From NCBI GenBank assembly GCA_944372055.1, contig CALVYF010000002.1, positions 43,628 through 107,627 of the forward strand: DNA of 64,000 nt, written 5' to 3'. Below, one piece after another: positions 9,808 to 26,319 of the stretch. Source of the DNA: an uncultured Bacilli bacterium (lineage in GTDB: Bacteria; Bacillota_I; Bacilli_A; RF39; UBA660). Both the position numbers and the translations under genes were made by a program. The number at the start of each line of letters is the position of its first letter. Positions within the stretch are counted from its first letter, which is position 1. The notes under the pieces are model-generated. The model was not told the DNA's origin and did no database searches. It saw only the letters and a list, made by a program, of their open reading frames with translations.

Positions 9808-9859
9808 CTCTCATACATTATATCATATTTTTATACTCATACTAATATTAGGTGATTTT

Positions 9860-11661: not shown

Positions 11662-12163
11662 ATTCACTACATTCAAAATAACGATTTGTAAAATAGATTT
11701 TTTGATTAATTAGTTTATCATTAAAGTAATTTTCTTTTAAATCTTGATTGTTAGGATTTCTATCAATGATGTCTTGATTAATAGTTATGATTGTTTGATT
11801 TTCTGTCTGCTCTATGATAACACCTTCTAGACTTTGAAAATAGGAAAGTTCCATCGAAGGTAAAAGATCGTTTTCTATGGTATTAATTACTGAGTATTCT
11901 GTTGCTGGAGTTGTTGTATACGTGATTTTTGTTTGATTTGCTTTTGAATTAATATATCTAACTTCTACAACTTCTGTTGTTTGTTCTTCGGCATAGTTTC
12001 TAGTACAAGTTAAGAGAGTTATTTTATCATTGTTTGTGGGTTTTGTTTCTTCTATTTTAGGAAATAATAGTCGAAACAATGGCGGTAATATAATTAATAA
12101 GGATAATATTATGATTATAATAAATGCTCTAATTGGATGAAATTTTTTATTCATTATTATCAC
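11651..12163 (-). CDS. Hypothetical N-terminally membrane-anchored protein
   Basis: ORF track entry. One N-terminal TM helix (AFIIIIILSLLIILPPLF) then a soluble domain. No recognisable motif. Confidence 0.4.
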   Translation of the reverse strand: MIIMNKKFHPIRAFIIIIILSLLIILPPLFRLLFPKIEETKPTNNDKITLLTCTRNYAEEQTTEVVEVRYINSKANQTKITYTTTPATEYSVINTIENDLLPSMELSYFQSLEGVIIEQTENQTIITINQDIIDRNPNNQDLKENYFNDKLINQKIYFTNRYFECSESTP

Positions 12164-12497
12164 CTATTTTCTTTAATATTTTGTATTTACTCCAAAGAAT
12201 ATATGTTACTAAAACAGGACAGGCTGGAAGAATAATCCATAAGAGGATTGGTAATCTACTCTTTTCTAATACATTATATTTTCTTAGTGGTATTAATTCG
12301 TATATAGACCAAAGTAATGTATATCCTGAATAGATAGTAAAGACAATTCCTAAAACTTTTAGTAGTATTGTATCCTTTTGGATAGATGTGATTTTTTTAT
12401 TTTTTAGTATCATTATTATTGTTAGTAGTACTAGTATTAATGTTATTGGTAAAACTATATATAAAAATAAAGTTAAGAAGATATTTTTATTTGTCAT
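12147..12497 (-). CDS. Hypothetical small integral membrane protein
   Basis: 116 aa with three predicted hydrophobic helices. Overlaps the next gene start by 17 nt. Confidence 0.4.
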   Translation of the reverse strand: MTNKNIFLTLFLYIVLPITLILVLLTIIMILKNKKITSIQKDTILLKVLGIVFTIYSGYTLLWSIYELIPLRKYNVLEKSRLPILLWIILPACPVLVTYILWSKYKILKKIGDNNE

Positions 12498-12547
12498 TTG
12501 TACTCTCCTTATTATATAGGTATATCATATTTTTTAGATATTAGCAA

Positions 12548-13114
12548 TTAGCGAATGATAATCTCTAAAAATTTCGCTAAAGCTAAAGCCTGCTCTTCGC
12601 TTACTATTAAACCTTTCATACTGGGAATATCTATTTTAATATGATTGATATTGCAAGTTGTTAAATCAATATCTTTTAGATTGGTTTCAAATACATCTAC
12701 TGAATCTAAGTTACAGTTTGTAAATTGTAATTTTTTTTGTTTCATTTTGTATAATGATGCTTCTTTTAAATTACATTCCGTAAAAATTACTTTATCTAAT
12801 TCTGCTAAAGCAAAAGTTGCATAAGATAAGTTACAGTTTACAAATTCTACTTCTTTTAGAAAAGCATTAGAAAAATTAGTACCAACAAAATTACAATTGG
12901 TAAATACAACTTTGTATATAGATTGGCCACTTAGATTAAGATTGGAAAAGATAGAAGAGTTTATTTTACTATCTGTGATTTCTAAATAATTAAACTTTGA
13001 GTTTTTCCAGTCAATTTTTTCTAAAGTTGCATTTTTAATTTCTAATTCTTCAAAAGTTATATCAATTTCTTTATTTTCTAGTTGAATATCTTTTATTTTA
13101 TCTATTTTTTCCAT
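12548..13114 (-). CDS. Pentapeptide-repeat protein
   Basis: Tandem A(D/N)LxX-type repeats are visible: NLSGQSIYKVVFTNCNFVGTNFSNAFLKEVEFVNCNLSYATFALAELDKVIFTECNLKEASL. Confidence 0.8.
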   Translation of the reverse strand: MEKIDKIKDIQLENKEIDITFEELEIKNATLEKIDWKNSKFNYLEITDSKINSSIFSNLNLSGQSIYKVVFTNCNFVGTNFSNAFLKEVEFVNCNLSYATFALAELDKVIFTECNLKEASLYKMKQKKLQFTNCNLDSVDVFETNLKDIDLTTCNINHIKIDIPSMKGLIVSEEQALALAKFLEIIIR

Positions 13115-13116
13115 GA

Positions 13117-13701
13117 TTACCTGCTTTCTATTTCTATCCCTTTTTCTAATTTTTTAAGTTTTTTATTATTATGATAGGCATTTTTAAAGGTGATAGGAAC
13201 TCCTTTTGAATTATCTGGATCTATTCCTAGCTGAATCTGAAAATGGATATGTGGACCTTGGGTATTTCCGCTATTACCTACTTTTCCTATTAGTTGTCCT
13301 TCTTTTACTAAATCGCCAATTTGAACGTTAAAAGTTCCTTTTTCAAAGTGGCAAATTGTAGAATATTCTCCATGATTATGTTTTATAATGATGTAATTTC
13401 CTTTTGGATTATCACAATCATTAATTATTTTTCTGTCTTTCGTAATATGGGTGTTTTCATATTTATCTACTATTTCTACTACCCATCCATCTGAAGGTGC
13501 ATAAATATTTTCTAGGTATGAATAGTAATTTTCATTTTTTGTAAGATCATCATGATATGGAAGATTTTCATTTCTTATTTCAAAGTCGTAGGCATAACGC
13601 TGACCTATAATATTCCAAGAATGAGAATTTTTCTTTTTTGTTCCGCCATATTCTACATACCAAGTTCCTTTAAATGGTAGAATGTATTTGTTTTTACTCA
13701 T
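13117..13701 (-). CDS. M23 family metallopeptidase (no signal peptide)
   Basis: GQLIGKVGNSGNTQGPHIHFQI is the M23 HxH motif region. No N-terminal hydrophobic segment. Confidence 0.75.
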   Translation of the reverse strand: MSKNKYILPFKGTWYVEYGGTKKKNSHSWNIIGQRYAYDFEIRNENLPYHDDLTKNENYYSYLENIYAPSDGWVVEIVDKYENTHITKDRKIINDCDNPKGNYIIIKHNHGEYSTICHFEKGTFNVQIGDLVKEGQLIGKVGNSGNTQGPHIHFQIQLGIDPDNSKGVPITFKNAYHNNKKLKKLEKGIEIESR

Positions 13702-13912
13702 GGTGTTTTAGCCTTTCCATTTTTTCTCTTAATAATTTTCTGCGGTCCTCTTCTACTTCTTTTTTTTCTATTATCTTTTCATTTTCTATCGAAAAAATCA
13801 ATCCTTCCCTGGGTTCAAATGTAAATTCTTCTTTTTTTAGTTCTATTTTTTCTTTTGTTTGTAGATTTTCAGCAATTACAAGATTGTTTTCTATTCTATC
13901 GATTGCGTACAT
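13694..13912 (-). CDS. DUF3006-like small protein
   Basis: MYAIDRIENNLVIAENLQTKEKIELKKEEF matches the DUF3006 pattern. This family is typically found next to ComEC-type MBL hydrolases, as here. Confidence 0.55.
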   Translation of the reverse strand: MYAIDRIENNLVIAENLQTKEKIELKKEEFTFEPREGLIFSIENEKIIEKKEVEEDRRKLLREKMERLKHHE

Positions 13913-13920
13913 ATTATCAC

Positions 13921-14826
13921 CTACCCGTTTGTATCTGTTTTCAGAGTATTAATTTCTATGTTTGTTCCGTCGGTAATTATTTTTATTGTTCCATCTTGAT
14001 CCGTACGATATGTTGTTATATTATGGGAAGCTAGAGTATTTAACACTGTTGTATGAGGATGTTCATATTGATTATCTACTCCTACAGAAATAACAGCATA
14101 TTGTGGATTTACTGTGTTTAAAAATTCTTCATTTGTTGCGGTAGAAGAACCGTGATGTCCTACTTTTAGTACGGTTGATTGTAAGTCACTTTTATTTAAT
14201 TTCTCTTCTACTTTCGTTGAAGCATCTCCAGTAAACAAAAAGCTTATATTTTGATAAGTTACTTTTAATACGATGGATGTGTTATTTAAGTCCCTTTCTT
14301 CTTCTGTTCCTACATATAGTACTTTAACAGTTGCATCTCCTAATTTAAAGGTAGCGTTTGTTTTAGGAATAGATAAACTCATATTCTTCTCTCCTAATGC
14401 ATCTAATACATCTTCAAATGTTTTGGTTGTTGTAATTACATCTGGCATGTAGAATGTCTCTATATTAAAGTTTTCTATAACATCATCAAGACCGCCTATA
14501 TGATCTTCGTGAGGATGCGTCCCTATTACATAGTCAAAGTTGGAAATGTTTTGTTTTTTGAAATAGTTTACTAACTTAGGGCCATCTTCATTATTTCCAG
14601 CATCTATTAGCATATAATGACCTTCGTTCTCTAAAAGGATTGAATCTGCTTGACCTACATCGATAAAAGTTACTTCTAATCTTTCTTCTGCAGTAACAGG
14701 TGCTTCTTCTATTCTTTTATTTATGTTATCTTGGTTATTTTGTATTGGATAATTTTGAAATAGATAAAATATTCCAATAATAACTAATATTATAAATGAT
14801 GAAATTATTTTTTTCTTTTTTTTCAT
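13921..14826 (-). CDS. Secreted MBL-fold metallo-hydrolase (ComEC C-terminal-domain-like)
   Basis: N-terminal anchor helix, HPHEDHIGG metal motif and LKVGHHGSSTA. Confidence 0.8.
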   Translation of the reverse strand: MKKKKKIISSFIILVIIGIFYLFQNYPIQNNQDNINKRIEEAPVTAEERLEVTFIDVGQADSILLENEGHYMLIDAGNNEDGPKLVNYFKKQNISNFDYVIGTHPHEDHIGGLDDVIENFNIETFYMPDVITTTKTFEDVLDALGEKNMSLSIPKTNATFKLGDATVKVLYVGTEEERDLNNTSIVLKVTYQNISFLFTGDASTKVEEKLNKSDLQSTVLKVGHHGSSTATNEEFLNTVNPQYAVISVGVDNQYEHPHTTVLNTLASHNITTYRTDQDGTIKIITDGTNIEINTLKTDTNG

Positions 14827-14922
14827 ATGCTTACCTCTATTCTATTTTAATCATATCATATTTTTTTATGAATAGTAAGCCTGTTCTTCTTAATAAAAAA
14901 TGAGATTAGTTCTCATATTTAT

Positions 14923-14957
14923 TCTAAAAAAAAGAAAGTGCTTGGACACTTTCTTTT
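14923..14957 (-). terminator. Rho-independent terminator at the left edge of the toxin island
   Basis: AAAGAAAGTG-cttgga-CACTTTCTTT 10-bp stem. On the minus strand it is followed by a T-run of eight (T8). Confidence 0.55.
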
Positions 14958-15037
14958 GCTACGCAAGATAATATTTTAAATAAATCTTTTAAATCAACCA
15001 ATTCTTCTAATTTATTAAAATATATATTTGTTTCTTC

Positions 15038-15229
15038 TCATTTATTTAATGAAAATTCTTTTAGAAGTAAATTAGAGGTAACCTCATTACTTCTTTCTAC
15101 ATATAGATAGACCTTATATGTTGATTTTTCCTTACACATAACACAACCAAAAGTATTATTTTGATTCTCCTGTTGGTATATGTCTAATATATTGTCTTCT
15201 ATAGTCAGTTTTTCTTTATTAATATTCAT
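15038..15229 (-). CDS. Hypothetical 63-aa protein
   Basis: ORF track entry only. No motif. Confidence 0.25.
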   Translation of the reverse strand: MNINKEKLTIEDNILDIYQQENQNNTFGCVMCKEKSTYKVYLYVERSNEVTSNLLLKEFSLNK

Positions 15230-15307
15230 TACTACTTCACCTCGAATATCAATACTAACATTATAACATTAGATTATTATATAAACAATCAAATATTACC
15301 ATTTATA

Positions 15308-15937
15308 CTAAGGCTTTTTACTTGGTGGTTCTACTATTATGTTTCTATTTTTATCTAATAATATAGGCGAAATATCTTCTAATATTTCATCATCATTTTT
15401 AGAATAACTATCATACATTTCAATTTTAAATGACTGACCATCCCTGATTTTGATATGCAAAAATCTTCGCAAATTAAAAAGTAATATACCTGAATCCAGT
15501 TCGTAATACTCTTCAACTTTTATTGACTGAATATCTGAATATGGAACAATATGTACTTTTCTTTTGGAGACTAAGCAAAAAAAGTTAGACGTTAATAAAA
15601 AATTGTTTTTACTCCAGTATATTACATGATTGCATTCGGTGTTATATTTATTTTTTATTAAATTTGTTTTAATTTTTTTTACATAATAATATCTAAAAAT
15701 ATTTCCAATAGAAAATACTATTGCTCCAATTAGTTCAATAAAAATTATAGATATAAAAAAGGAGTCATTAGTACGTCGAAATATAATATATGTTAAGATT
15801 ATAATTATTATTCCTATAATTAAATTTGTAAGTACTATTTGCTTTGATTTTGATATACATTTGTTTATATTTATATAATGTTCATCCATTGCTATAAATT
15901 CCTCCACATTTATTATATATGTAATTATATCATACAT
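15308..15937 (-). CDS. Two-TM membrane protein with a C-terminal beta-rich (PH-like?) domain; candidate RHS immunity protein
   Basis: TM helices LTNLIIGIIIIILTYIIF and FISIIFIELIGAIVFSIGNIF. Lies directly downstream of the RHS gene, on the same strand. Confidence 0.4.
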   Translation of the reverse strand: MYDIITYIINVEEFIAMDEHYININKCISKSKQIVLTNLIIGIIIIILTYIIFRRTNDSFFISIIFIELIGAIVFSIGNIFRYYYVKKIKTNLIKNKYNTECNHVIYWSKNNFLLTSNFFCLVSKRKVHIVPYSDIQSIKVEEYYELDSGILLFNLRRFLHIKIRDGQSFKIEMYDSYSKNDDEILEDISPILLDKNRNIIVEPPSKKP

Positions 15938-16002
15938 TGAAATTATAATGAAATCTATTATTATTTTTTACATGTATTTTACTAATAACTAATTATCTGT
16001 AT

Positions 16003-16037
16003 ATGAAAAAGAATAACACAAGAGTGTGTTATTCTTT
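16003..16037 (-). terminator. Rho-independent terminator immediately after the RHS stop codon
   Basis: GAATAACACA-ctct-TGTGTTATTC 10-bp stem followed by TTTTT on the minus strand. Confidence 0.7.
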
Positions 16038-16039
16038 CG

Positions 16040-19000
16040 TTAAACTGGTATATTAAATCCGATTTTTATGCCACCACCTATTCCAATAAAACCGCTAATA
16101 TCAATTCCAATAAACATTTTATCGTCATCAGGTGTTTTTTCGCCTGTGGCTTTAAAACTTTCATCCCCTATCTCATATCCTAATACTATATCTTTTTCCG
16201 TGTCTGGGTCGTTCCAAATTTCATCTTCCCACGGCATTGCAAAAGGGTTACTATCTCCATTGTCCTTGTGTTTTATATCTGCTCCAAAGCCTACTTTTCC
16301 TAATATATCACTTCCGAATACAATACCACCTGAAGTAGCGGTATAATCATAACTTTTACCTTCTTCAATTCCTTTACCAATTGTTTTAGAAGCTCCAAAT
16401 TCTCCTTTAATCGGTCCTGTACCAATTTTACCACCAAAGCCAAATCCGATTTCTCCTTCGATTACAAAAGAATTATTAATTGCTTGTGACCAATCATATA
16501 ATGTATTTACTACTTTTTTTGCTCCGTTCCAAAGCGCTTGTGCTCCGGATACTATTGCGTTACCAACTTTTTTTAATGCCTTTTTTGCTTTATTTATTGC
16601 TTTTTTTGCCTTCTTCTTGATATTGTTCATTGTTTTCTTTGCCCAGCTTAAGAAACCTTGCCCATTAGGATCTGATTTATTAATTGGATTATTACTAACA
16701 TAAGCATATAAATTGTATCCGATATGATCATTATTCATTCCTATACATACATCTGCACTTATAAATCTTCCCCATTCTGGATTGTAATATCTTGTATTTA
16801 AATAATAAAGGTTTGTCTCATTATCATAATAGTATGATCTATAACGTATTGGATTTATTGTTCCAATGCCTTCTAGACTATTATCAACAATATTAATTAA
16901 TTTTCCCCACGAATCATATTGATATTCAACAATTTTGTTTCCAGTATTATCTAATATTCCTATAATATCATCCTGCAGATTCTTTAAATAGTAATAAATA
17001 TTATCGTTGTATTTAAGACCAATTAAATCTTCATTATCTCTAATAAAGAAAAGTACATTGTTATTTGTTCTCTCAAATATTAATTTTGAACCTTCATAAT
17101 AATAATTAGTAACAATACCATTGCTTTCTTTTGATGTTCTTAATCCATTCATATCATATTTAAAATTCAGATTAATGTTTTTCTTAGAATCAACATAAGA
17201 TTTTAATTCATGACCATTTATCCAGTTTAAAACTATATTATTGCCAATTTTTATTATGTTTCCTACATTGTCATAGCATATATTGGTGTTGTTATAGTTT
17301 GTTAATTGATCTCTCCATGTGTTATTATAATTATAGATATTTACATTAACGATGTTATTCTCTTGATCTTTTATTGTTTTCTTTGTAATGTTTCCGTATA
17401 GGTCATATTCATATTCAATATTTTGACTTTCTCGATAGTTTTCTTCTTTTATTAGTTGACCATACTGATCGTAAGAATATTGATTTATTAAGCTATTGTT
17501 ATGGTATATACGTGATATGTTGTTTAATTTATCATATTCATAATTATATATGTCATTATCGTTGTTAATGTATTTTTTTACTAATCCAGTCAATCTGTTT
17601 CCATAGGATAAATATTCATATCTTCTTTGGTATTTTTTATCTATATTTTGTGATAATAATCTATTTAAGCTATCATAGGTATAGGTGGTTTCTAAATCTC
17701 CTAAACTTGACTTTATTACCACCCCATCTTCATTATTTTCGTTATTAATTGAATTGATAATATTCATTAATTTATATGTTCTATTTATAATGTTATTATT
17801 ATTATCATAGGTATAATTAATTTGAAAATCCCCATTCGTATATTTTGTAATTCTATTAGCAATATCGTAATGAGCGTTAATAATGCCATTATTAGATATT
17901 ATTTTTGCAACTCGGTTATTATTATCATATTTATATTGATAAGTATTTTCACTATCAATGATTTTTTCTAATCTATTAAAGTCATCATATTCATATTTTT
18001 TTGATTGCTGATTACCAAATTTAACTGATATTAATTTACCATTACTATCTGAATATTGATTTTCTAATAAAGTAGTATTATTAACCTTTAGTGATTTTAG
18101 ATTTAAAAAATCATCATAATCAAAATTGTATTCTAAGTTACCCAATTGAATTTTAGATAAATTATTTTGTTGATTGTAAAAATAATTCACTACTTTTTCA
18201 CCTGTAGTAATAGAGGTTAATTGATTTTTGTTATTATACGTATAATTTGTAGAAACATCATTTGCATCTGTAATAGAGGTAACTAGTCCTGTTATATTAT
18301 CAGTACAATAGGTTGTCTTTTTTAAATTCATATCCGTAACACTTTTTACGAAACGATTATCATCGCTATATGTTGCAATAGTTTCTATAAATTCCTCACT
18401 TATTGGTTCAATATAGAATTCATATTTAGATGTATCATCAACCATACTATTCAAAATTAATTTATCGTCAATAGCTGATAAAAATCTAACTACCTCTCCA
18501 CCTTCTTCCATCTTTTTGGATTCCGCTTCTAAATAATAACTACCATTATCGTTTTTTCTTAATCTAAATTTATTATTAATATCGACGTTGCTTAACATAA
18601 TATTATTGTTATTATCATAAGACAAATAATACTCTGGTAAAATTGAATATTTAAATTTATAATATATTTCATCATTTTCTTCTAGCTTTTCTACATCCCA
18701 TACGGTATTACTACATAAATTTTCTTCTAACAAGACTGAAGTTATGTGTGTTTTTATAAATTTTTCTGTTCCTTTAAGTCTTATTTTGTATTTTCCATTT
18801 TCTATGGATGAAGAGCCTCTTTTTTGTATTTTAATTGAGACAGGGTTTCCTGCACTATCATACTTAATTTTATTTGAAATTCCTTCAGAAGAAATTGCAC
18901 TTAATATTTTATTGGGTTTTTCATTATCATATTCATACCTAAAATTTTGCCCTAATGGCGTAGTTGTTTTAATTAATTGATTCTTTTTATCATATGTGAA

Positions 19001-22000
19001 TTTAGTAATATTTTTGGACTGATCCTCTATAGTAACAAGATTTCCGTTGTCATCATAATTATAATCGCCACTTGTAACATTTTTATATAATGCGAGATTA
19101 GTTACATAGAAATCATTTGCTTGACGTCCAAAACCGAAAATAATCTTAATGGCTTCAAAGTCTTCAGGAGCGCGACCCCTATAAGAAAAATATTGCCATC
19201 TATCTTTATTTAAATTGAATTTTCCTTTAGTTAAAATACAATATTCTGCATCCTTTCCAACAGGTTTAAAATAAATCATAACTTCACTAGCAGACATTGG
19301 CTCAGAAGCAAAAATCCCTTCATTTTTATACCAAAATGAAATTGTATATAGATCACCGCCCTTACCAGATACTGGAATTGTTTTGGTCAACTTATTAGAT
19401 TGCAGTATATTGTTATGTATTTTTAATGCAGTATTCTTATTGTTATTAAATTTAACAATTGAAAAAATATTTGATGTATCTATACTACTTCCGTCTTTTA
19501 ATGATATTGCTTCTGGAATCCAGTCAGAAATTCCTTCACTAAAGTCGGCATTTTCGATAATGTTGTAACTGTTTGCTACTTCACCTTCTTCTAATTGAAT
19601 GTCATCTAAATAAGTAATTCCAATTGAAGGAAATGAAATTGTGATTTTTAAATCAGTTTGTGCATCCTGATCATAGCTAATTGTTACATCACTTCTGCTG
19701 AAATTATCTGACACTTCAATAGATGTTTCTGATTTAACTAATGTATTATTTTCTTTTAAATATGATAGTGAAATAGATATAGGTTCACTCGTTTTAAAAT
19801 ATCCGCTAAATGTATATTTCTTATCTTTAAGTAATGAAATTGTTTTTTCTATGCTCTGTCCTGCTTTAAGACATTCTAGTTTTAAAGATTGATTTCCCGT
19901 ATGTTTATATTGGGTAGTAATTTCCTTATTTATGCCTGTTATATCAGATACAATAAAACCATCATTATCCTCTTCGAAGCTACTATTCTTTAAGTAATTT
20001 TTCACAGATTTAATAGGAATGGAATTAGAGAGAATTCTATTTTTTGTTACTTCATCATCTCCATAACTTTGTGCTATAGAATATGCGGTATCTATATTTT
20101 CACTATCAATTAGACTATTTCTAGAAACAACATTCCCATACTCATTATAGATTAATGTCATTGCCTTTTGATTATTATCTATCAATGTTGTTGAATTATA
20201 TGCGTAATCCAAGGTGTAGAATTGTCCTATTTTATTATTCAATCCTATTTCTGTTACTTTTTTGATACGATACGGCTTTTCATTATAGTATTCATATTCC
20301 ATTTTAATGCCTGTAACATCAGTAATAGAAGAAAGAATATTATATTCATTATAATTCATAACTGTCGTACCCTTAATATTTTCTAAAGATGTTAATGCAT
20401 TATTAATATAGTTTAATGTGGTTGTTGTCAAATCGGAACTAGTTATTATAATACTACTTTGATTATATGTAAGATTAACTTCTTGATTATGATTATCACA
20501 AATTTTAATTATATTATTTTCATCATCATAAAAAATTTCATTATAATTTTCATTTGTATCTATAATTTTTTTCAAATAATAATTATCATTTATTAGGTTA
20601 AAAATCATTTTAGTATCATCTTGATCCACTAATGTTAATTCCGAACTATTTAATTCAATTGTTAATCCCAAATTATCTTCATCTACATAGATGTTTTCTG
20701 ATATTTCAACAGTACCATCAAGTGATTGTGTTGTTTTTTTCCTAAAATAATGTAATGTTGCACTTTCATCATTATATTCTAAATAATCAGTATCTTCAAT
20801 TGTGCATTTTTTGATCACTTGATTGTAATTCAATTTATATCCATTACCAAATTTAGTGTGATTATTAAGAGTTACGTCATTCGTATTATAAACTAATGAC
20901 AAATTTACTGGCAATTTTCCTCCGATTGTATGACCTAAATTAAAAATTGTAGTCAAATTGCCATTATATGTATTTACGTACGCTTTACCATTTGAAAAAG
21001 AATGACTTTGATAGTCCAAATATGATTCTAAACCATTATAATTTCGGTAAGCAATAACAAGTGTAGGTCTTGGATTATTATCCTCTGTAAAAGTATTGTT
21101 TTTTGAATAAAAAGCTGGATAATCGTCATCTTCATAAGTTTCTTCGTTTGTTGATTTTAACATTATTCCATAATTAGGGGTATCTTTGTACCACCTTTTT
21201 ACTAAATCTGTAATATTCATATCATATAACGAATAACCCGGTATAATAGCATCGTTAATAACTTCACTTCTATATCCCATATATATGCTTTCTATTCGTT
21301 CATCATATTTATCATGCATATTATCCCATTTTGCTGTTTCTTCATTCCAATCCTTAGTAATCCTATGAATTGTTGCCATCTTTTCTGGAGGGTTTATTGT
21401 GTAAGTTGGATATGCAATTAAACTTAACCCTGCATATATAATTTCACTACCTGTGCCTATTGTAGGCAAATCAAATTTTATTAATGTTCTGTTAATTCTG
21501 TTATTGCCATTTACTTTTTCTACGCCTGCTTTTAGATATGGTTTATTATTATTGCTATCCGTATTATCTCCAGAATAAATATATGTATCATATACTGAGT
21601 TATTATTATTTGTGGTGATTGTAGGGTCAATATAAACAGGATATTTAACTTTTGATGATGTTAACCATTGATTGTCTAATATTAAATCTAAATCATAATG
21701 ATTCTCATGCTTCGTAATATTATAATGTACATTATAATTTCTTTGACCTAGTGAATCCTCCATATATGGAGATTCAATCATAAACACTTTTTTATCACAA
21801 TCTATTGCAAAAATCTGATTTTCTTCTAATTTTAATTCCAAATTTGTTTCAATAATAAAATCTAATTTACTATAATTAGAATTTTTCAATATAATTGTTT
21901 CTTTTAGTTTTGATGGCATTGCTTTATATTCTATATCAACATCTTGCAATACTTCATCATAAGATATTTCTTGAATTAATTTTGAACTTGATTTTCTTTT

Positions 22001-22288
22001 GATGTTAGACTGATTACAATCGTGTAATTTAATATATAAATACTTATTATCTTTGGTGAGTTTCATTAGATATTTAGAAATTTGTTTTTCAAACTCCACT
22101 TTATAATTATTACTCTTGTTTGTTAATGTATTCCCTTGTTCAACTAATGTATTATCAATTTCATGATACATACCATTACTTAAATAATGTATATCGTTAT
22201 CATACATTTTAGCAACAATTATACCATCATCTCTTAAAAAATGCTTTTCACGAGGCTTTCTTTTTTCAATTAATTCTATCTCTTTCAC
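16040..22288 (-). CDS. RHS/YD-repeat polymorphic toxin, 2082 aa, GTG start, no recognisable signal peptide
   Basis: Dozens of YD repeats (YxYDxxGNxxxxxD, e.g. FTYDKKNQLIKTTTPLGQNFRYEYD, YEYDLYGNITKK). RHS core end YYLNTRYYNPEWGRFISADV...YAYVSNNPINKSDPNG, followed by a ~204-aa variable C-terminus. The N-terminus MKEIELIEKRKPREKHFLRDD is hydrophilic. RBS AGGAGGAATAAG-GTG. Confidence 0.9.
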   Translation of the reverse strand: MKEIELIEKRKPREKHFLRDDGIIVAKMYDNDIHYLSNGMYHEIDNTLVEQGNTLTNKSNNYKVEFEKQISKYLMKLTKDNKYLYIKLHDCNQSNIKRKSSSKLIQEISYDEVLQDVDIEYKAMPSKLKETIILKNSNYSKLDFIIETNLELKLEENQIFAIDCDKKVFMIESPYMEDSLGQRNYNVHYNITKHENHYDLDLILDNQWLTSSKVKYPVYIDPTITTNNNNSVYDTYIYSGDNTDSNNNKPYLKAGVEKVNGNNRINRTLIKFDLPTIGTGSEIIYAGLSLIAYPTYTINPPEKMATIHRITKDWNEETAKWDNMHDKYDERIESIYMGYRSEVINDAIIPGYSLYDMNITDLVKRWYKDTPNYGIMLKSTNEETYEDDDYPAFYSKNNTFTEDNNPRPTLVIAYRNYNGLESYLDYQSHSFSNGKAYVNTYNGNLTTIFNLGHTIGGKLPVNLSLVYNTNDVTLNNHTKFGNGYKLNYNQVIKKCTIEDTDYLEYNDESATLHYFRKKTTQSLDGTVEISENIYVDEDNLGLTIELNSSELTLVDQDDTKMIFNLINDNYYLKKIIDTNENYNEIFYDDENNIIKICDNHNQEVNLTYNQSSIIITSSDLTTTTLNYINNALTSLENIKGTTVMNYNEYNILSSITDVTGIKMEYEYYNEKPYRIKKVTEIGLNNKIGQFYTLDYAYNSTTLIDNNQKAMTLIYNEYGNVVSRNSLIDSENIDTAYSIAQSYGDDEVTKNRILSNSIPIKSVKNYLKNSSFEEDNDGFIVSDITGINKEITTQYKHTGNQSLKLECLKAGQSIEKTISLLKDKKYTFSGYFKTSEPISISLSYLKENNTLVKSETSIEVSDNFSRSDVTISYDQDAQTDLKITISFPSIGITYLDDIQLEEGEVANSYNIIENADFSEGISDWIPEAISLKDGSSIDTSNIFSIVKFNNNKNTALKIHNNILQSNKLTKTIPVSGKGGDLYTISFWYKNEGIFASEPMSASEVMIYFKPVGKDAEYCILTKGKFNLNKDRWQYFSYRGRAPEDFEAIKIIFGFGRQANDFYVTNLALYKNVTSGDYNYDDNGNLVTIEDQSKNITKFTYDKKNQLIKTTTPLGQNFRYEYDNEKPNKILSAISSEGISNKIKYDSAGNPVSIKIQKRGSSSIENGKYKIRLKGTEKFIKTHITSVLLEENLCSNTVWDVEKLEENDEIYYKFKYSILPEYYLSYDNNNNIMLSNVDINNKFRLRKNDNGSYYLEAESKKMEEGGEVVRFLSAIDDKLILNSMVDDTSKYEFYIEPISEEFIETIATYSDDNRFVKSVTDMNLKKTTYCTDNITGLVTSITDANDVSTNYTYNNKNQLTSITTGEKVVNYFYNQQNNLSKIQLGNLEYNFDYDDFLNLKSLKVNNTTLLENQYSDSNGKLISVKFGNQQSKKYEYDDFNRLEKIIDSENTYQYKYDNNNRVAKIISNNGIINAHYDIANRITKYTNGDFQINYTYDNNNNIINRTYKLMNIINSINNENNEDGVVIKSSLGDLETTYTYDSLNRLLSQNIDKKYQRRYEYLSYGNRLTGLVKKYINNDNDIYNYEYDKLNNISRIYHNNSLINQYSYDQYGQLIKEENYRESQNIEYEYDLYGNITKKTIKDQENNIVNVNIYNYNNTWRDQLTNYNNTNICYDNVGNIIKIGNNIVLNWINGHELKSYVDSKKNINLNFKYDMNGLRTSKESNGIVTNYYYEGSKLIFERTNNNVLFFIRDNEDLIGLKYNDNIYYYLKNLQDDIIGILDNTGNKIVEYQYDSWGKLINIVDNSLEGIGTINPIRYRSYYYDNETNLYYLNTRYYNPEWGRFISADVCIGMNNDHIGYNLYAYVSNNPINKSDPNGQGFLSWAKKTMNNIKKKAKKAINKAKKALKKVGNAIVSGAQALWNGAKKVVNTLYDWSQAINNSFVIEGEIGFGFGGKIGTGPIKGEFGASKTIGKGIEEGKSYDYTATSGGIVFGSDILGKVGFGADIKHKDNGDSNPFAMPWEDEIWNDPDTEKDIVLGYEIGDESFKATGEKTPDDDKMFIGIDISGFIGIGGGIKIGFNIPV
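16043..16654 (-). other. Variable C-terminal toxin domain of the RHS protein (after the DPNG cleavage-type motif)
   Basis: FLSWAKKTMNNIKKKAKKAINKAKKALKKVGNAI (Lys-rich amphipathic helix) followed by Gly-rich segments GEIGFGFGGKIGTGPIKGEFG and GIDISGFIGIGGGIKIGFNIPV. Confidence 0.6.
19085..20026 (-). other. Two tandem carbohydrate-binding-module-like jelly-roll domains inside the RHS protein (approx. aa 755-1068)
   Basis: Each module starts with an N(S/A)(S/D)FE(E/G)...W/F pattern (LKNSSFEEDNDGF..., IENADFSEGISDWIP...) and ends with ...Y(L/V)D(D)IQLEEG or FYVTNLALYK, as in CBM4/9/22-type modules. Boundaries are approximate. Confidence 0.45.
21029..21616 (-). other. DNRLRE-type beta domain in the RHS N-terminal region (approx. 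aa 225-420)
   Basis: DTYIYSGDNTDSNNNKPYLKAGV...NRINRTLIKFDLP...ATIHRITKDWNEETAKW follows the pattern I recall for the DNRLRE domain seen at the N-terminus of Firmicute wall-associated/RHS proteins. Assigned from memory, not from a search. Confidence 0.4.
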
Positions 22289-22299
22289 CTTATTCCTCC

Positions 22300-22923
22300 T
22301 TAACTAATTCTTTTCCATACATAAACTGCTAAATATGGTGGCATGTTATTATGTGCTTGACTTCCTCCAGTATTATTTATTGTAACAGTATGTGAGTGAG
22401 CTCCGGCAGATGCAAATGATCCATATTCTGCTGCGTCTGCTTGTTGTGTTCTTGCAACACAGGCGTAAGTAGCTGAACCATCACCTTTTGTAGTCCACCA
22501 TCCTTTAAAGGTATGCCTGTGCTCTCCAGTACTATTTGTGCTAGCTGTATGATTATGACTTGGTATTTCATTTGTATTTAAAACATGGCTAGCCTCTCCT
22601 CCAGTAGTACCATTGGCATATTCTGTACCACATGCTAATAAAAATCTATCTTGAATTTGTTCCCATTGTCCACCAAATAATTGACCTGGATTTTCTGAAT
22701 TGATAGACATATAAATTGATCCTACAGGATAAACTACATCAATAATCGGCTGAGAAGAAATAGAATTTGCAGTTAAGCTCTTAACAATTAGATTACCATC
22801 ACTATCTAACCAAAAATTGCTATTTTTTGATGTAATACAATTAGCGTTTAATTGGTGAATGGCTAAATTTGTATTTTCTTCTTCCTTAGTAAATGCGTTA
22901 ATAATATAATCATATTCGTTCAT
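22300..22923 (-). CDS. Phage tail-fibre/baseplate-type receptor-binding-like protein, translationally coupled to the RHS gene
   Basis: YPVGSIYMSINSENPGQLFGGQWEQIQDRFLLACG...GGEASHVLNTNEIPSHNHT, three HxH motifs (HNHT, HRHT, HSHT) and the C-terminal AHNNMPPYLAVYVWKR. This is the pattern of prophage tail-fibre/baseplate tip proteins of Firmicutes. Its TAA stop lies inside the RBS of the RHS gene. Confidence 0.6.
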   Translation of the reverse strand: MNEYDYIINAFTKEEENTNLAIHQLNANCITSKNSNFWLDSDGNLIVKSLTANSISSQPIIDVVYPVGSIYMSINSENPGQLFGGQWEQIQDRFLLACGTEYANGTTGGEASHVLNTNEIPSHNHTASTNSTGEHRHTFKGWWTTKGDGSATYACVARTQQADAAEYGSFASAGAHSHTVTINNTGGSQAHNNMPPYLAVYVWKRIS

Positions 22924-23065
22924 ATTTTTTCCTCACTTTTCTTTTTTTTAATTTCTTTTTTAATTATTAAGTATAAGATATTTTAATATTCATCCTATTT
23001 ATATCTCGTCAACTCATAGCAATCATCTCCTTTTCTGTTTCAATTTTCTCTTAAAATTAAAAAAT

Positions 23066-23094
23066 ATTACAGTACGCGAGACGTACTATTTTTG
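23066..23094 (-). promoter_or_regulatory. Conserved palindromic element, copy 1 (upstream of the tail-fibre-like/RHS operon)
   Basis: ATTACAGTACgcgaGACGTACTATTTTTG. The inverted repeat AGTACG/CGTACT is centred about 155 nt upstream of the start at 22923. 23 of 28 positions are identical to copy 2. Confidence 0.5.
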
Positions 23095-23152
23095 TTGCAT
23101 TTTTTTCTTATAAATTAATTAAATTGTTACCTTTAGAGTAAATAAACAAAAG

Positions 23153-23181
23153 AAAAATGGTACATCACACGTACCATTTTT
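23153..23181 (-). terminator. Rho-independent terminator after the lysin gene
   Basis: ATGGTAC-atcacac-GTACCAT stem flanked by A5/T5 runs, 11 nt downstream of the stop at 23192. Confidence 0.7.
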
Positions 23182-23191
23182 AAATATTTTT

Positions 23192-24127
23192 TTATACTTC
23201 GTATAGAAATGTACTATAAACCCATATATCGTGATTGTTTATTTTTAATTTAGCAGAATTTGTTTTTACATCAATATCAATTATCTCATAAATATTTTTG
23301 TTTATTACATAACTAGAACCACCAGTTAATTTTTGATCTTTAGTTGCTGCACCGTTTTTATCTACTTCTGTAAAATCATAAGTAGGTATCCAATGATAGT
23401 CTTGTACTTTTTCTTTTCTATAACTATCGATTGAGCAACCAGTTAATTCACAACAACCAAACATATTACTGGATACGGGACTTTTAATTATATCTACTTT
23501 AAATATACCATCAAATTTCACCTTACTTCTTATATGTAAAATTTGATCTATAATTTCTTTTCTTGATAATTCTTTTATTGGAGTCTCATTTGTCGTTTTC
23601 CAATTACCTCCCATACCTTTTATAATGTTTGTATTATCAACGAAGTAACAACTATCTAAATCATACTCATTATTAAACATATAATTACCATATTTATTTA
23701 GCTTCCATGTAGTATCAGAAGATTGGCTAACTTCGATATGGCAATGAACTCCAGTCATATTTGAAAATCCTTTATTTCCCATATTTCCAAGTTGTTGTCC
23801 TTGTTTTACTAGTTGCCCTACTTTTGCATTCATAGCATTATCATGAGCTGTCATAAATGTAGCATAATCTATCCTTCCATTAGAAAATCTAACTTTATTA
23901 ATAGATTGCCACATAACTTGTCCAGTTTCTGGATATGTTTTTAAGCACTTACACGTGCATGGCGCATAATAAGGATACTTTACACCGGCTACTTTTCCTC
24001 GAACATCGTTAGCCATAATTCCTCTATGACTATATTTTCCATTTGACCCTTGACTAATGTACATATCAGTAAATGGGCATAAAAAGTCTTCTATATTATT
24101 TCTAATGGATGTTTGACCTTTAATCAT
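23192..24127 (-). CDS. Phage-type peptidoglycan hydrolase: M23-like endopeptidase domain + C-terminal putative wall-binding domain
   Basis: QQLGNMGNKGFSNMTGVHCHIEV (M23 HxH region) and YSHRGIMANDV upstream. No signal peptide. Overlaps the holin gene by 8 nt. Confidence 0.65.
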   Translation of the reverse strand: MIKGQTSIRNNIEDFLCPFTDMYISQGSNGKYSHRGIMANDVRGKVAGVKYPYYAPCTCKCLKTYPETGQVMWQSINKVRFSNGRIDYATFMTAHDNAMNAKVGQLVKQGQQLGNMGNKGFSNMTGVHCHIEVSQSSDTTWKLNKYGNYMFNNEYDLDSCYFVDNTNIIKGMGGNWKTTNETPIKELSRKEIIDQILHIRSKVKFDGIFKVDIIKSPVSSNMFGCCELTGCSIDSYRKEKVQDYHWIPTYDFTEVDKNGAATKDQKLTGGSSYVINKNIYEIIDIDVKTNSAKLKINNHDIWVYSTFLYEV

Positions 24128-24341
24128 AAAGAGTACCTTTTTTCTTAATATTTAGCACTACAGATATTGCACTACCGATAGCACCTGCAATTAAGCCATA
24201 TATTGCGGTTTTATTAGTTATATCCACTGTCATGATATTTACTGCGATATATGATGCAAAAACCTCTATAAAAGTTTTAATAGCTCGTTCTACTTTCGGC
24301 TTTTTTAAAAATTTTTTTAATTTATATATAAATCTATCCAT
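24120..24341 (-). CDS. Holin (LL-H-type, two TM helices)
   Basis: 73 aa. Basic N-terminus, ERAIKTFIEVFASYIAVNIM and AIYGLIAGAIGSAISVVLNI helices, charged C-tail. Immediately precedes the lysin. Confidence 0.6.
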   Translation of the reverse strand: MDRFIYKLKKFLKKPKVERAIKTFIEVFASYIAVNIMTVDITNKTAIYGLIAGAIGSAISVVLNIKKKGTLYD

Positions 24342-24342
24342 A

Positions 24343-24663
24343 TTACCACTCCTTATTAATTTTTTCTTCTAATTTTCCAACTCTTTCACTAACATTTTTT
24401 GTTTGTTCTTCGCATCTTGCAATTCTCTCTGTCATAATATCAAATTTATCATTAATACCTCTTATTTCATCTTTTAGATCATTATTTCCAGAAAGTACCA
24501 TATCTAACTTTGTTGAAATTGTAGTATCTCTTTTGACTCTATCTGTAATAGAATCTTTTGCCCGACTTCCTAAATTTGCTTTATATGTCAAAAAAGCAAT
24601 TAAAGAAGTGATTGCAGTACATATAATTGATATTAGTGATGAATAATTTACATCAATAATCAC
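24343..24663 (-). CDS. N-terminally membrane-anchored coiled-coil protein (lysis-module accessory, function unknown)
   Basis: GTG start with an AAAGGAG RBS. TM helix LISIICTAITSLIAFLTY followed by a heptad-like charged region. 1-nt gap to the holin gene. Confidence 0.35.
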   Translation of the reverse strand: MIIDVNYSSLISIICTAITSLIAFLTYKANLGSRAKDSITDRVKRDTTISTKLDMVLSGNNDLKDEIRGINDKFDIMTERIARCEEQTKNVSERVGKLEEKINKEW

Positions 24664-24768
24664 TTACAGCGCTCCTTTCTTATATTTTTGAAAATATACT
24701 AAAATAATTATGGCAATGGCATATATACACCTCCAATCTATAATTACTTTCTCATTTCTAATATTTTA

Positions 24769-24796
24769 ATTACAGTACATTTGACGTACTATTTTG
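24769..24796 (-). promoter_or_regulatory. Conserved palindromic element, copy 2 (upstream of the lysis operon, downstream of the XRE gene)
   Basis: ATTACAGTACatttGACGTACTATTTTG, centred about 120 nt upstream of the GTG at 24663. Confidence 0.5.
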
Positions 24797-24798
24797 CA

Positions 24799-24830
24799 CA
24801 AAAAAACGTATTTAATTTTAATACGTTTCA
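24799..24830 (-). terminator. Rho-independent terminator after the XRE regulator gene
   Basis: AACGTATT-N7-AATACGTT stem followed by T6 on the minus strand. Confidence 0.6.
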
Positions 24831-24836
24831 ATTAAT

Positions 24837-25307
24837 TTATAATTTGATTTTAGTAAGCTCATTTATTTGGTTTCTTTTTAAGAATTCATTTATATCATCA
24901 ATGGGCATATTATAAAAGTTTCTTAATATAAAGCAATATATGCAGTTTTCTTTCGTTAAATTATTTTCGATATTGTATCCACTCATTTTTATTAATTCAA
25001 AACTAAATTCTGGAGGCAATTTCATACCTATACACAATGCAATTATAGTTTCTACTGAATATCCTCTTTTATCGTTGGTTTCTATTTCTTTTATGGTTTG
25101 TGCACTTATGTATGAACTTTCTTCTAATTGTTCTCTAGTTAATCCAATACTTTCTCTATAATATCTTAATCTCTTTCTAAAATTATAAGGTACAGAATCT
25201 AAAATTTGATAAACCTTATTATAATATTGACTGAACTTTTCTGGAGTGATTTTAATTTCCTCTGATGTTTCAAATCCTTTGATTTTTATATATTGTTTTT
25301 TAGGCAT
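24837..25307 (-). CDS. XRE-family helix-turn-helix transcriptional regulator
   Basis: RLRYYRESIGLTREQLEESSYISAQTIKEIETN is a classic Cro/CI-type HTH, with a ~75-aa C-terminal extension. Confidence 0.7.
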   Translation of the reverse strand: MPKKQYIKIKGFETSEEIKITPEKFSQYYNKVYQILDSVPYNFRKRLRYYRESIGLTREQLEESSYISAQTIKEIETNDKRGYSVETIIALCIGMKLPPEFSFELIKMSGYNIENNLTKENCIYCFILRNFYNMPIDDINEFLKRNQINELTKIKL

Positions 25308-25326
25308 AGGTATTATAATTGGACAT

Positions 25327-25872
25327 TCATAGTAACAAGGTTATTAGAGGATACGATTTTTTCAATTGCTTATTATTTCTTATTATATAGAAGTAATTAT
25401 CTAAAGAATCAGGAACCCATTCGCTAGATTTTAATATTTTTTTTAAAATAGATAAATTTAAAAATTTTCTGTTATTATTATGATTATAATTATTAATAAT
25501 TTTTAGTATATAATTCGTTACTATATTTTCAGTAACAAAATTTTTTAATGCTATTTTGTTTGGTCGATATTTTGTCCAATTCATTTTTTTCTTAGCGAGA
25601 CGTATGAATAATCTATCTAAACTATCTGGTAACAATATTTTAAAAATCTCTGTATTTTTTTCATTTTTGAATGTTTTCAATATATTATTTGAGTTATTTG
25701 CGTATATAGCTAAACATCTATTTATGTATTGTCTTTTATAATTGAATATTATCTTCACTTTTAAAATAGATTTTAAATTGACTTTAAATTCTGGTTGAAT
25801 ATTAAGATGTGATGATATTTTTTCTTTTGATATTTTTAATAAGAATTTTTCTGCATATTCTTTAAGTTTCAT
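25327..25872 (-). CDS. Hypothetical 181-aa Lys/Asn-rich protein
   Basis: ORF track entry with a GGAG RBS. No motif recognised. Confidence 0.3.
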   Translation of the reverse strand: MKLKEYAEKFLLKISKEKISSHLNIQPEFKVNLKSILKVKIIFNYKRQYINRCLAIYANNSNNILKTFKNEKNTEIFKILLPDSLDRLFIRLAKKKMNWTKYRPNKIALKNFVTENIVTNYILKIINNYNHNNNRKFLNLSILKKILKSSEWVPDSLDNYFYIIRNNKQLKKSYPLITLLL

Positions 25873-26182
25873 ACTTCATCGCTCCAACAACAAAAAAAGC
25901 AGTATAATCCTGATAATGGATAATACTGCAACACCATTTATTATTTATAATATATAAATTACCATATTTTTCCTTTTTGCGCAATTGAAAAAGTCTTTTA
26001 TTTGTTTCTTTTTTTGATGCTTCGTTGCTATTATTTTTCTGTTTTTTCTATATATTCTAACTTTAATTATTTGCAAAAAAGTGGATGACTTTATTAATGG
26101 TAATATAGGGGATACACAGTTAAAAGCTGTTAATAAGTCTACTTTCTTAACTATATTATATTACAAATTTATGATATTAAAT

Positions 26183-26213
26183 AAAAAAGGTTAACTGAAA
26201 TTAACCTTTTTTA
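26183..26213 (-). terminator. Terminator of the tRNA-Arg/tRNA-Thr transcription unit (bidirectional hairpin)
   Basis: AAAAAAGGTTAA-ctgaaa-TTAACCTTTTTT, preceded by a second small hairpin AGTCGA-ttagt-TCGACT (26219-26235). Confidence 0.7.
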
Positions 26214-26245
26214 TTTAAAGTCGATTAGTTCGACTACTTTCTTTA

Positions 26246-26319
26246 TGGTGCCGAAAGACAGAATTGAACTGTCCGCTGATCCTTACCAAGGATCTGTTTT
26301 ACCACTAAACTATATCGGC
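26246..26319 (-). tRNA. tRNA-Thr (anticodon GGU)
   Basis: Hand-folded cloverleaf: acceptor GCCGATA/TTTCGGC (one T-T mismatch), D arm GTTT/AAAC, anticodon arm GATCC-TTGGTAA-GGATC, T arm GACAG-TTCAATT-CTGTC. CCA is encoded. Confidence 0.85.

Follow-up and report, generated by a model that had tools for sequence, protein, structure and literature searches.

Linkage of a leaderless RHS toxin to a phage fiber-tip-like protein and lysis genes in uncultured gut Bacilli: a candidate lysis-release system

INTRODUCTION

According to the available text of two reports, the Tc toxins of Yersinia entomophaga and Serratia are released by lysis of a specialized subpopulation of cells (PMC10847048, PMC10847046), and the release of colicins is lysis dependent (PMC3482391). 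The accessible parts of two further papers present the release of the Clostridioides difficile toxins through TcdE as a matter of debate between a nonlytic and a lytic route (PMC11344133, PMC12485765). For the large signal-less RHS/teneurin-like toxins of Gram-positive bacteria, both exit from the producer and targeting are open questions, and the delivery of such shell toxins has been said to await elucidation (PMC13018210). Here we analyze an island in a 64,000-nucleotide (nt) stretch of DNA from an uncultured Bacilli bacterium (GenBank assembly GCA_944372055.1, contig CALVYF010000002.1, positions 43,628 to 107,627; “the window,” with a G+C content of ~28%). It encodes a leaderless RHS protein, a phage fiber-tip-like Gp10_C protein (here FIB), a candidate immunity protein, a regulator of the XRE family, and a holin-lysin cassette (Table 1), and it belongs to a family of loci that offers a testable answer to the question of exit and targeting.

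The island resembles the Tc loci, which exemplify the type 10 secretion system (T10SS), in combining a large signal-less toxin that has an RHS-type cocoon with an adjoining holin-endolysin cassette. However, its host is Gram positive; its predicted toxin is a single antibacterial RHS chain with an immunity gene, as opposed to the tripartite insecticidal TcA/TcB/TcC; and the partner protein is a phage fiber-tip protein in place of TcA. Release by lysis, reported for the Tc toxins, is here deduced from the genes. No spanin-like open reading frame (ORF) was found in the island, and none would be expected because the host is monoderm; the comparison is meant as an analogy and not as a claim of membership in the Gram-negative T10SS in the strict sense.

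Clostridial loci of the pathogenicity locus (PaLoc) type, with TcdR, TcdE, and the remnant TcdL, and the UviA/UviB-BCN5 bacteriocin locus share with our locus family a Gram-positive host and large leaderless toxins, and many relatives of the island encode a Phage_holin_4_1 holin and a small sigma factor, with a candidate promoter motif in front of both the toxin and the holin. The window itself differs from these systems in having an XRE regulator, a holin of a different family, and no sigma factor. Furthermore, its toxin is an RHS protein and not a glucosyltransferase, and the target is probably bacterial. Colicin operons are similar in function only, as an induced, receptor-targeted toxin is combined with immunity and lysis functions and a subset of the producers is sacrificed. 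There is no homology between the two; a phage holin and endolysin are found here in place of a lipoprotein, and an RHS cocoon is used, with receptor binding placed partly on a separate protein.

WapA-type proteins of Bacillus and Streptococcus consist of an RHS shell with a DNRLRE/CBM96 module near the N terminus and a polymorphic C terminus that is paired with immunity (PMC12704120). The window protein shares all these features, and its N-terminal module is also common to relatives that carry a signal peptide. However, WapA proteins carry wall anchors as well as a Sec signal peptide, whereas the window RHS protein starts directly at the module and, in contrast to the relatives with a signal peptide, is accompanied by FIB and lysis genes. 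The MuF toxins of temperate phages of Firmicutes are fusions with a phage head morphogenesis (MuF) protein and are carried inside the capsid. They are described, in the available text of the source, as polymorphic toxins in prophages of Gram-positive bacteria (PMC5576092). One clade of our loci is likewise prophage cargo but, in contrast to MuF, it is an RHS protein with a fiber-tip partner that is involved, mostly in loci without virion genes. The literature that we searched, which covered few of the subscription journals, holds no description of Gram-positive bacteria in which a leaderless RHS protein is combined with a Gp10_C partner and lysis genes, and the arrangement apparently has not been described before.

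RESULTS AND DISCUSSION

Linkage of RHS, FIB, and lysis genes in related loci

The search for relatives started from homologs of the N-terminal 450 amino acids (aa) of the window RHS protein. Scanning a genome collection with this single N terminus gave no match, and an alignment of close homologs was what brought up the relatives. When each species was represented by a single genome, tblastn yielded 130 relatives; 80 loci were fetched, and ORFs were called and clustered in 99 loci (designated by L numbers). Nearly all of them come from uncultured gut Bacilli or from metagenome-assembled genomes (MAGs) labeled “Tenericutes.”

FIB is encoded in 79 of the 80 species-level loci and lies directly upstream of RHS in 63 of the 67 that have a long RHS ORF. 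A holin-plus-lysin cassette in the strict sense, within a few kilobases, is present in 21 of the 35 loci whose flanking sequence extends over 3 kb or more on both sides; two more of these loci encode a lysin next to an XhlA-like protein or another transmembrane (TM) protein, which brings the count to 21 to 23 of 35. The co-occurrence of this RHS N-terminal architecture with lysis genes and a fiber gene, which the original prediction had put forward as a way to check it, is therefore seen across species. Two positions are seen for the cassette: in some loci, as in the window, it precedes FIB, and in others it follows the immunity gene. Its components vary: the lysins include M23, M23 with PG_binding_1, GH25 with or without LysM, Amidase_2, and CHAP with SH3, and the holins belong to Phage_holin_4_1 (TIGR01593, “toxin secretion/phage lysis holin”), 5_2-like, 6_1, and other families. 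Such nonorthologous replacement of holins and lysins within a fixed neighborhood argues for selection on their function. We take the Phage_holin_4_1/TIGR01593 family to include TcdE. The holins of L041, L044, L045, and L062, among others, match it well (PF05105, E = 1e-39; TIGR01593, E = 1e-28); the window holin gave no match to Phage_holin_4_1 or TIGR01593. In some loci (L036, L038, and L080), a holin is found without a recognizable lysin.

Among the ORF clusters of the relatives, families of tube, sheath, tape measure, and baseplate proteins do not recur, except in the clade of L089 to L093, and no other conserved secretion genes were found in the neighborhood of the related loci. Many species share the minimal gene set, free of structural genes, and in the syntenic L009 and L011 it occupies another chromosomal site.

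A natural control is provided by RHS proteins that have the same N-terminal module but carry a Sec signal peptide. A profile of the module retrieved 2,199 clusters (at 50% identity) with E values of ≤1e-30. Leaderless members begin at residue 1 with MKEIE..KR..EKHFL, whereas in a sister set the module motif follows a Sec signal peptide and linker of ~50 to 70 aa; one protein of that set is annotated as WapA. Among the signal peptide-type loci with intact ORFs, none has FIB (0 of 8) and none has an adjacent holin-lysin pair (0 of 8). The control scan also turned up one leaderless locus, L121, with genes for a helix-turn-helix (HTH) protein, a secreted protein, a holin, a lysin, FIB, and RHS. 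Some genomes encode both types of RHS protein (L042 together with L115).

The cultured Blautia sp. HCP3S3_G3 (L134, ~10001 to 18000) encodes a 2194-aa RHS protein without an obvious signal peptide. Downstream of its gene come an ORF of 220 aa, a holin of the Phage_holin_4_1 family, and an orphan RHS fragment; there is no FIB. Matches in phage records were of little use: H1 and H2 are unannotated, unverified fecal contigs and uninformative, and the Streptococcus suis “phage” match is an element with resistance genes and a 3148-aa protein.

Cis-elements shared by the toxin and lysis operons

A 23-nt palindrome, TAGTACG-N6-GTACTGTAAT, occurs in exactly two copies in the window (versus 0 expected by chance), one in front of each operon (Table 1), and the pair was also recovered by a repeat search. 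The pair recurs at the two corresponding places in L015 to L022 and in L028, and a related common motif, a TGGTACGT...ACGTAC version, in L024. In loci of the sigma type, a different element, a candidate promoter motif, takes this place: GTCTAGTGAAAnTCCAGTA precedes FIB by 13 to 86 nt in 16 loci (2 further loci have it where the ORF call missed the start of FIB), and in 4 loci of this type (L041, L044, L045, and L062) it also precedes the Phage_holin_4_1 holin. It has 25 matches in 1.68 Mb, all of them on the coding strand. Thus, there are two independent architectures, the palindrome of the window type and GTCTAGTGAAAnTCCAGTA of the sigma type, in which the toxin and lysis operons have a common cis-element. 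These motifs are candidate regulatory sites, and the proteins assigned to them are putative. The terminator of the lysin gene (23153 to 23181; ATGGTACGTGTGATGTACCAT) is a diverged copy of the operon palindrome. This hairpin may combine the role of a terminator with that of a binding site for a protein.

The regulators encoded in the related loci include a sigma-70 region 4/extracytoplasmic function (ECF)-like protein of ~160 aa in 22 loci, an XRE protein in 5, and a membrane HTH protein with a secreted 250-aa protein in 5. The sigma factors of the relatives match generic sigma-70 region 4/ECF families; the match to BotR (E = 0.005) was below the cutoff. An XRE gene directly upstream of the lysis genes, as in the window, is also seen in L009/L011, L026, L032, L039, L102, and L015 to L022. 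Upstream of FIB, L030, L035, L040, L049, L057, L058, L075, and L121 encode an HTH_3 protein of ~260 aa and a protein of ~250 aa with a signal peptide and no family match; the HTH_3 protein was called a membrane protein from a hydrophobic stretch at about residues 80 to 100, read by eye. A sigma factor sometimes follows this pair, which looks like a signal-sensing cascade over the toxin locus.

Lysis operon

The XhlA-like protein, which comes first in the lysis operon, has an N-terminal TM segment (aa 11 to 29, by hydropathy) followed by a coiled coil. The end of the holin gene overlaps the start of the lysin gene by 8 nt. The C-terminal domain of the lysin resembles that of ScrM (C-terminal match to NF052572, E = 4.6e-8), and neither a signal peptide nor a TM segment was seen in the lysin by hydropathy. 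When the window is compared with a sister strain or species, at dS values of 0.12 to 0.43, the ratios of nonsynonymous to synonymous substitution rates (dN/dS) are 0.07 for the XRE gene (against a sister strain), 0.08 for the gene of the XhlA-like protein, 0.02 to 0.04 for the holin gene, and 0.12 to 0.13 for the lysin gene. All four genes are under strong purifying selection and are not decaying.

RHS toxin and its candidate immunity protein

The window RHS protein is predicted to be a bona fide RHS polymorphic toxin that is related to WapA but leaderless. It comprises a β-sandwich (aa 1 to 230), a CBM96/DNRLRE module (aa 233 to 412), a shell of YD/RHS repeats (PF05593, E = 1.2e-30; TIGR01643, E = 2e-25), an RHS-associated core (aa 1791 to 1877; TIGR03696, E = 1.6e-19), where the sequence reads ...NLYAYVSNNPINKSDPNGQ, and a C-terminal domain (aa 1878 to 2082). 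A DPxG-type motif closes the core, and the toxin domain follows immediately. This Gly/Lys-rich domain of 205 aa had no match in Pfam, NCBIfam, or the PDB. Judging from its composition and from the two TM segments of the protein encoded in the candidate immunity position, the toxin of the window is probably membrane active; the toxin activity as such is putative, as is the immunity function of the 209-aa protein. A sister strain has a barely related protein of 226 aa in the immunity position, alongside its different RHS C terminus, and orphan RHS C-terminal fragments are found downstream in 13 related loci.

The N terminus of the RHS protein had been read as free of any signal or delivery domain, and this reading stands: neither a signal peptide nor a TM segment was detected by hydropathy, there was no Pfam match to an LXG or WXG100 domain, and no such helical domain is seen in the AlphaFold2 (AF2) model of aa 1 to 450 (predicted local distance difference test [pLDDT] score of 88.8), which is almost all β-strand and consists of the β-sandwich and the CBM96 module. 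The PDB structures matched by the model (8wab and 7vbo) are CBM96/DNRLRE carbohydrate-binding modules, and the best match in a viral structure library is an uncharacterized 1379-aa protein of Siphoviridae (TMq 0.72). At the sequence level, the first ~230 aa resemble a protein of Bacillus phage PBC1 and its relatives whose gene directly follows that of the tape measure protein. The N terminus is predicted to be a phage-related, adhesin-like module and not an LXG/WXG or PAAR domain. A Dit/Tal baseplate domain was also considered for it and rejected, as the PDB fold search returned only CBM96 and generic β-sandwich structures.

In several relatives, RHS is split into an N-terminal piece (278 to 581 aa) and the rest of the protein. 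The splits trace to frameshifts at homopolymer runs, T5A4 in L010 (2500 to 2650) and A7 in L013 (11720 to 11850), and to an in-frame TAA in L012 (11440 to 11460); another one is in L014 (6790 to 6840). A 517-aa RHS piece (P0001) is found on six contigs. The splits could reflect phase variation, programmed frameshifting, pseudogenization, or assembly error.

FIB, the fiber-tip-like partner

Only 11 nt separate the stop codon of FIB from the start of RHS. Hydropathy analysis showed neither a signal peptide nor a TM segment in FIB. The AF2 model of the monomer is poor (pLDDT of 58), as would be expected for a trimeric fiber; its best fold matches in the PDB are to T4 gp10, which only echoes the Pfam result. 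FIB is a candidate receptor-binding partner of the RHS protein, with which it would form a complex. Invariant residues are C29, S32, D40, and G43 to L45 in the N terminus of FIB and R10, K15, and H16 in that of RHS.

The loci in which a predicted coiled-coil protein of ~120 aa, without a family match, is encoded between FIB and RHS comprise 20 of the 63 with FIB directly upstream (L041, L045, L053, and 17 others). This protein, which the window does not have, typically accompanies a long FIB (250 to 400 aa) and may be a fiber assembly factor or adaptor.

Prophage clade

In L089 to L093 and in L104 and L105, which come from IMG/VR, the genes are arranged in the order tape measure, Dit (DUF6711), Tal, a 650-aa fiber protein with a Gp10_C end, XhlA-like protein, holin, and M23 lysin, and continue with a small FIB, RHS, an immunity gene, and orphan cassettes. 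The M23 lysin of the L089 to L093 clade is homologous to that of the window, and the two sequences, read by eye, show a close likeness between the small FIB, in its C-terminal domain, and the tip of the 650-aa phage fiber. The module in this clade is prophage cargo, and it shows the origin of the system. As the small FIB is part of the cargo and not the fiber of the phage itself, the position of the lysis genes before the fiber gene is explained. The original prediction had named, as an observation that would speak against it, the same lysis genes in a prophage that carries RHS as an unrelated insertion. Homologous lysis genes do belong to a siphophage tail-lysis module in L089 to L093 and L104/L105; however, given the likeness of the FIB C terminus to the phage fiber tip, RHS is not an unrelated insertion. 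In two members of the clade (L090, 2450 to 2851, and L091, 2683 to 3054), a small lipoprotein gene in reverse orientation lies between the tape measure and Dit genes and looks like a second cargo gene of the RHS-bearing prophage.

Proposed mechanism and alternative explanations

The linkage of the genes, the signal peptide-type control, the dN/dS ratios, and the shared motifs lend comparative-genomic support to the proposal, made originally from the window sequence, that a phage-derived lysis module serves the release of the RHS toxin. We consider it probable that the island is a self-contained, phage-derived lysis-release system of a colicin/type 10-like kind for an antibacterial RHS toxin in a Gram-positive host. 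Release by lysis and receptor binding are the steps that we infer. In this scheme, a regulator would turn on both operons together, namely, the XRE protein in the window, probably acting at the palindrome, and a small ECF-like sigma factor in many relatives. One operon would then produce the leaderless RHS protein and FIB, followed by the immunity protein, and the other one the XhlA-like protein, the holin, and the M23 lysin. RHS and FIB would fold in the cytoplasm, with the Sec route not usable for them. In a subset of cells, the holin would permeabilize the membrane and the lysin would open the wall, letting the toxin out. Once released, FIB and, on the RHS side, the CBM96 module would bind receptors on related bacteria, and the RHS shell would deliver its C-terminal toxin (in the window, a probably membrane-active one), while siblings that have the immunity protein would survive.

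Several points weigh against this scheme. The support for it comes from comparative genomics only, and the carriers are uncultured lineages known from MAGs. About one-third of the well-covered loci have no recognizable lysis cassette in cis, so that the lysis genes are not obligatory in cis; many loci end at contig ends, which makes these counts approximate. The FIB-RHS interaction is likewise one that we infer, with the FIB model at a pLDDT of only 58. The motifs are no more than candidate sites, and one related palindrome doubles as a terminator. Finally, the cassette of one clade is a prophage lysis module, and the linkage could in part reflect shared descent from prophage cargo.

This last point leads to the alternative that fares best, although we regard it as unlikely, i.e., that the island is the decaying end of a prophage, with the lysis cassette as a remnant of the late operon, FIB, RHS, and the immunity gene as downstream cargo, and a linkage that is merely historical. 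The RHS protein would then exit in some other way or only when a phage is induced. The order of tail, lysis, FIB, and RHS genes in L089 to L093 and L104/L105, with a lysin homologous to that of the window, is what this explanation would lead one to expect, and it would also fit the tRNA gene that adjoins the island and the serine recombinases near some of the relatives. However, the lysis genes are under strong purifying selection. The minimal set without structural genes is shared by many species, whose chromosomes carry it at differing sites, lysins and holins have been swapped for nonorthologous ones in one and the same slot, and there is a second architecture in which the lysis genes follow the immunity gene and carry the sigma-type motif of the toxin. 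The window itself has neither an integrase nor an attachment (att) repeat.

We find it distinctly less probable that the RHS protein is exported by another route, either a nonlytic, holin-only one or an unrecognized system, with the lysin remodeling the wall or being unrelated. The third of the loci without a lysin in cis and those with a holin alone (L036, L038, and L080) could be explained in this way, and for TcdE a nonlytic versus a lytic action is a matter of debate (PMC11344133, PMC12485765). However, full holin-lysin pairs predominate, and no other secretion genes are conserved nearby. It is also general knowledge that a folded RHS cocoon of ~240 kDa exceeds the known nonlytic holin channels.

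Least probable of all, and in our view very doubtful, is that RHS and FIB form a toxin-tipped side fiber on a virion or tailocin that is encoded elsewhere and freed by the cassette: the likeness of the RHS N-terminal ~230 to 450 aa to the post-tape-measure protein of PBC1 and to the 1379-aa Siphoviridae protein and the baseplate/fiber-tip fold of FIB would fit this idea, but the N-terminal module is shared by Sec-secreted WapA-like RHS proteins and so is not specific for virion attachment, most loci have no tube, sheath, baseplate, or capsid genes within 10 kb, the N terminus of the small FIB is unlike that of the coresident phage fiber in L091 (compared by eye), and immunity genes and arrays of orphan C termini are typical of free polymorphic toxins.

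Beyond the single island, there is about an even chance that lysis release of RHS toxins defines a large, undescribed class of Gram-positive RHS bacteriocins that arose repeatedly from prophage cargo and forms a monoderm counterpart of the T10SS for interbacterial warfare. In such a class, the leaderless toxin would form a particle with a hypervariable FIB, its release by the coregulated lysis cassette would be governed by a dedicated regulator (a sigma factor, an XRE protein, or a membrane HTH protein with its secreted partner), and strains would trade fiber, toxin, and immunity as a unit. The proposed class would span at least 130 species-level loci and ~2,200 clusters at 50% identity, mostly from uncultured gut Bacilli. 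If it is real, signal-less RHS toxins of these bacteria leave the cell by dedicated self-lysis and are targeted by a phage receptor-binding partner, and holin/endolysin release would extend from the host-directed toxins of a few pathogens to interbacterial toxins of abundant, uncultured gut Bacilli. The modular design, a receptor-binding protein joined with a toxin cocoon, might also lend itself to the engineering of targeted antibacterials.

Exchange between strains

When the window is compared with strains of the same species (L015 to L022), the flanks show 96.5% DNA identity and the lysis proteins are 92 to 97% identical. FIB is 72% identical, and RHS is 46 to 56% identical over its whole length, with a C-terminal domain at only 32%; the immunity proteins have a single stretch in common, at 28% identity. 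The divergence of FIB, RHS, and immunity proteins amid near-identical flanks indicates that fiber, toxin, and immunity are exchanged as one unit. This fits with FIB and RHS acting together in target recognition, and such an exchange between otherwise near-identical strains points to a role of the system in shaping how strains compete in the gut.

Layout and edges of the island

The ORFs of the island and their order on the minus strand (XRE regulator, XhlA-like TM/coiled-coil protein, holin, M23 lysin, fiber-like protein, RHS, and 2-TM protein) had been laid out from the sequence, and all were found again at the same coordinates, with assignments borne out by Pfam, PHROG, and NCBIfam (Table 1). 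Of the three terminators noted at the same time, one was recovered by a terminator scan, and the other two were read from the sequence; the hairpin after the XRE gene falls below the G+C criterion of the scan. The holin is backed by its PHROG match, whereas its description as LL-H-type could not be verified. The absence of phage structural and integrase genes, also part of the original prediction, holds: no capsid, portal, terminase, tape measure, or integrase family from Pfam, PHROG, or NCBIfam matches any ORF of the island, and the family searches found no tube, sheath, baseplate, or tail phage particle genes in it.

Table 1. Features of the island (coordinates refer to the window)
Feature	Position	Strand	Evidence or remark
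181-aa ORF	25327..25872	-	No Pfam, PHROG, or NCBIfam match; tRNA-proximal edge of the island
XRE-family regulator (HTH_3)	24837..25307	-	PF01381, E = 4.9e-7; phrog_4031, E = 1.6e-23
Terminator-like hairpin and T-run after the XRE gene	24800..24828	-	aaacgtat-N9-atacgttt-tttt, read from sequence
Palindrome, copy 1	24769..24791	-	Upstream of the lysis operon; candidate operator
XhlA-like protein, 106 aa, first gene of the lysis operon	24343..24663	-	phrog_1863, E = 8e-12; weak Pfam XhlA match
Holin, 73 aa	24120..24341	-	phrog_443 “holin,” E = 1.8e-4; hydrophobic segments
Lysin, 311 aa	23192..24127	-	Peptidase_M23 (PF01551), 29.9 bits versus cutoff of 28.7; phrog_9066 endolysin, E = 9e-19
Intrinsic terminator after the lysin gene	23153..23181	-	Terminator scan; 13-bp stem, then T-run
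Palindrome, copy 2	23066..23088	-	Upstream of the FIB-RHS operon
FIB, 207-aa Gp10_C protein	22300..22923	-	PF21939, E = 5e-24; several tail and tail fiber PHROGs
Leaderless RHS polymorphic toxin (predicted), 2082 aa	16040..22288	-	YD repeats, RHS core
Terminator-like hairpin and T-run after RHS	16006..16034	-	gaataacaca-ctct-tgtgttattc-ttttt, read from sequence
2-TM protein, 209 aa, candidate immunity protein	15308..15937	-	TM segments at aa 34 to 52 and 60 to 78 (hydropathy); directly downstream of the toxin
63-aa ORF	15038..15229	-	Marks the conserved flank on the distal side of the variable cassette

The island is bounded by a tRNA-Thr gene (26246 to 26319) and a gene for a 301-aa ComEC-like protein of the metallo-β-lactamase (MBL) fold (13921 to 14826). 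A repeat of the 3' end of the tRNA-Thr gene, which would mark an att site, was looked for in the window and not found. Near-identical holin, XhlA-like, and XRE proteins are annotated in “Candidatus Faecimonas intestinavium,” an uncultured member of the gut Bacilli.

At the distal edge, the 63-aa ORF matches the first part of a 95-aa ORF of the sister strains at 89% identity, and DNA identity is back at 92% here. At the other edge, the counterpart of the 181-aa ORF in the sister strains has 122 to 135 aa, and it is uncertain whether this ORF is a member of the system. The idea that it is a TcdR-like sigma factor was dropped, as there was no family match and hhalign detected no similarity to the sigma-like regulators of the relatives.

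Between the tRNA genes and the island, the sister strains L015 to L022 (6303 to 8042) encode an extra protein of 579 to 582 aa without a family match, inserted at a site that corresponds to ~25900 to 26240 in the window. In L020 (1 to 5760), the upstream flank has been swapped for one with Mob_Pre, DUF1016, an FtsX/ABC pair, and SieB. These two differences indicate that the tRNA-side edge of the island is an insertion hotspot.

The core genes at 8677 to 13701 of the window (a 194-aa M23 protein, GerAC, GerA, and a TRAM methyltransferase) are syntenic with positions 1 to 5268 of L009, where a homologous island is found downstream of the methyltransferase gene and beside a ParA-like gene. The island thus occupies different sites in related genomes. 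In L010, a gene for a serine recombinase lies past RHS.

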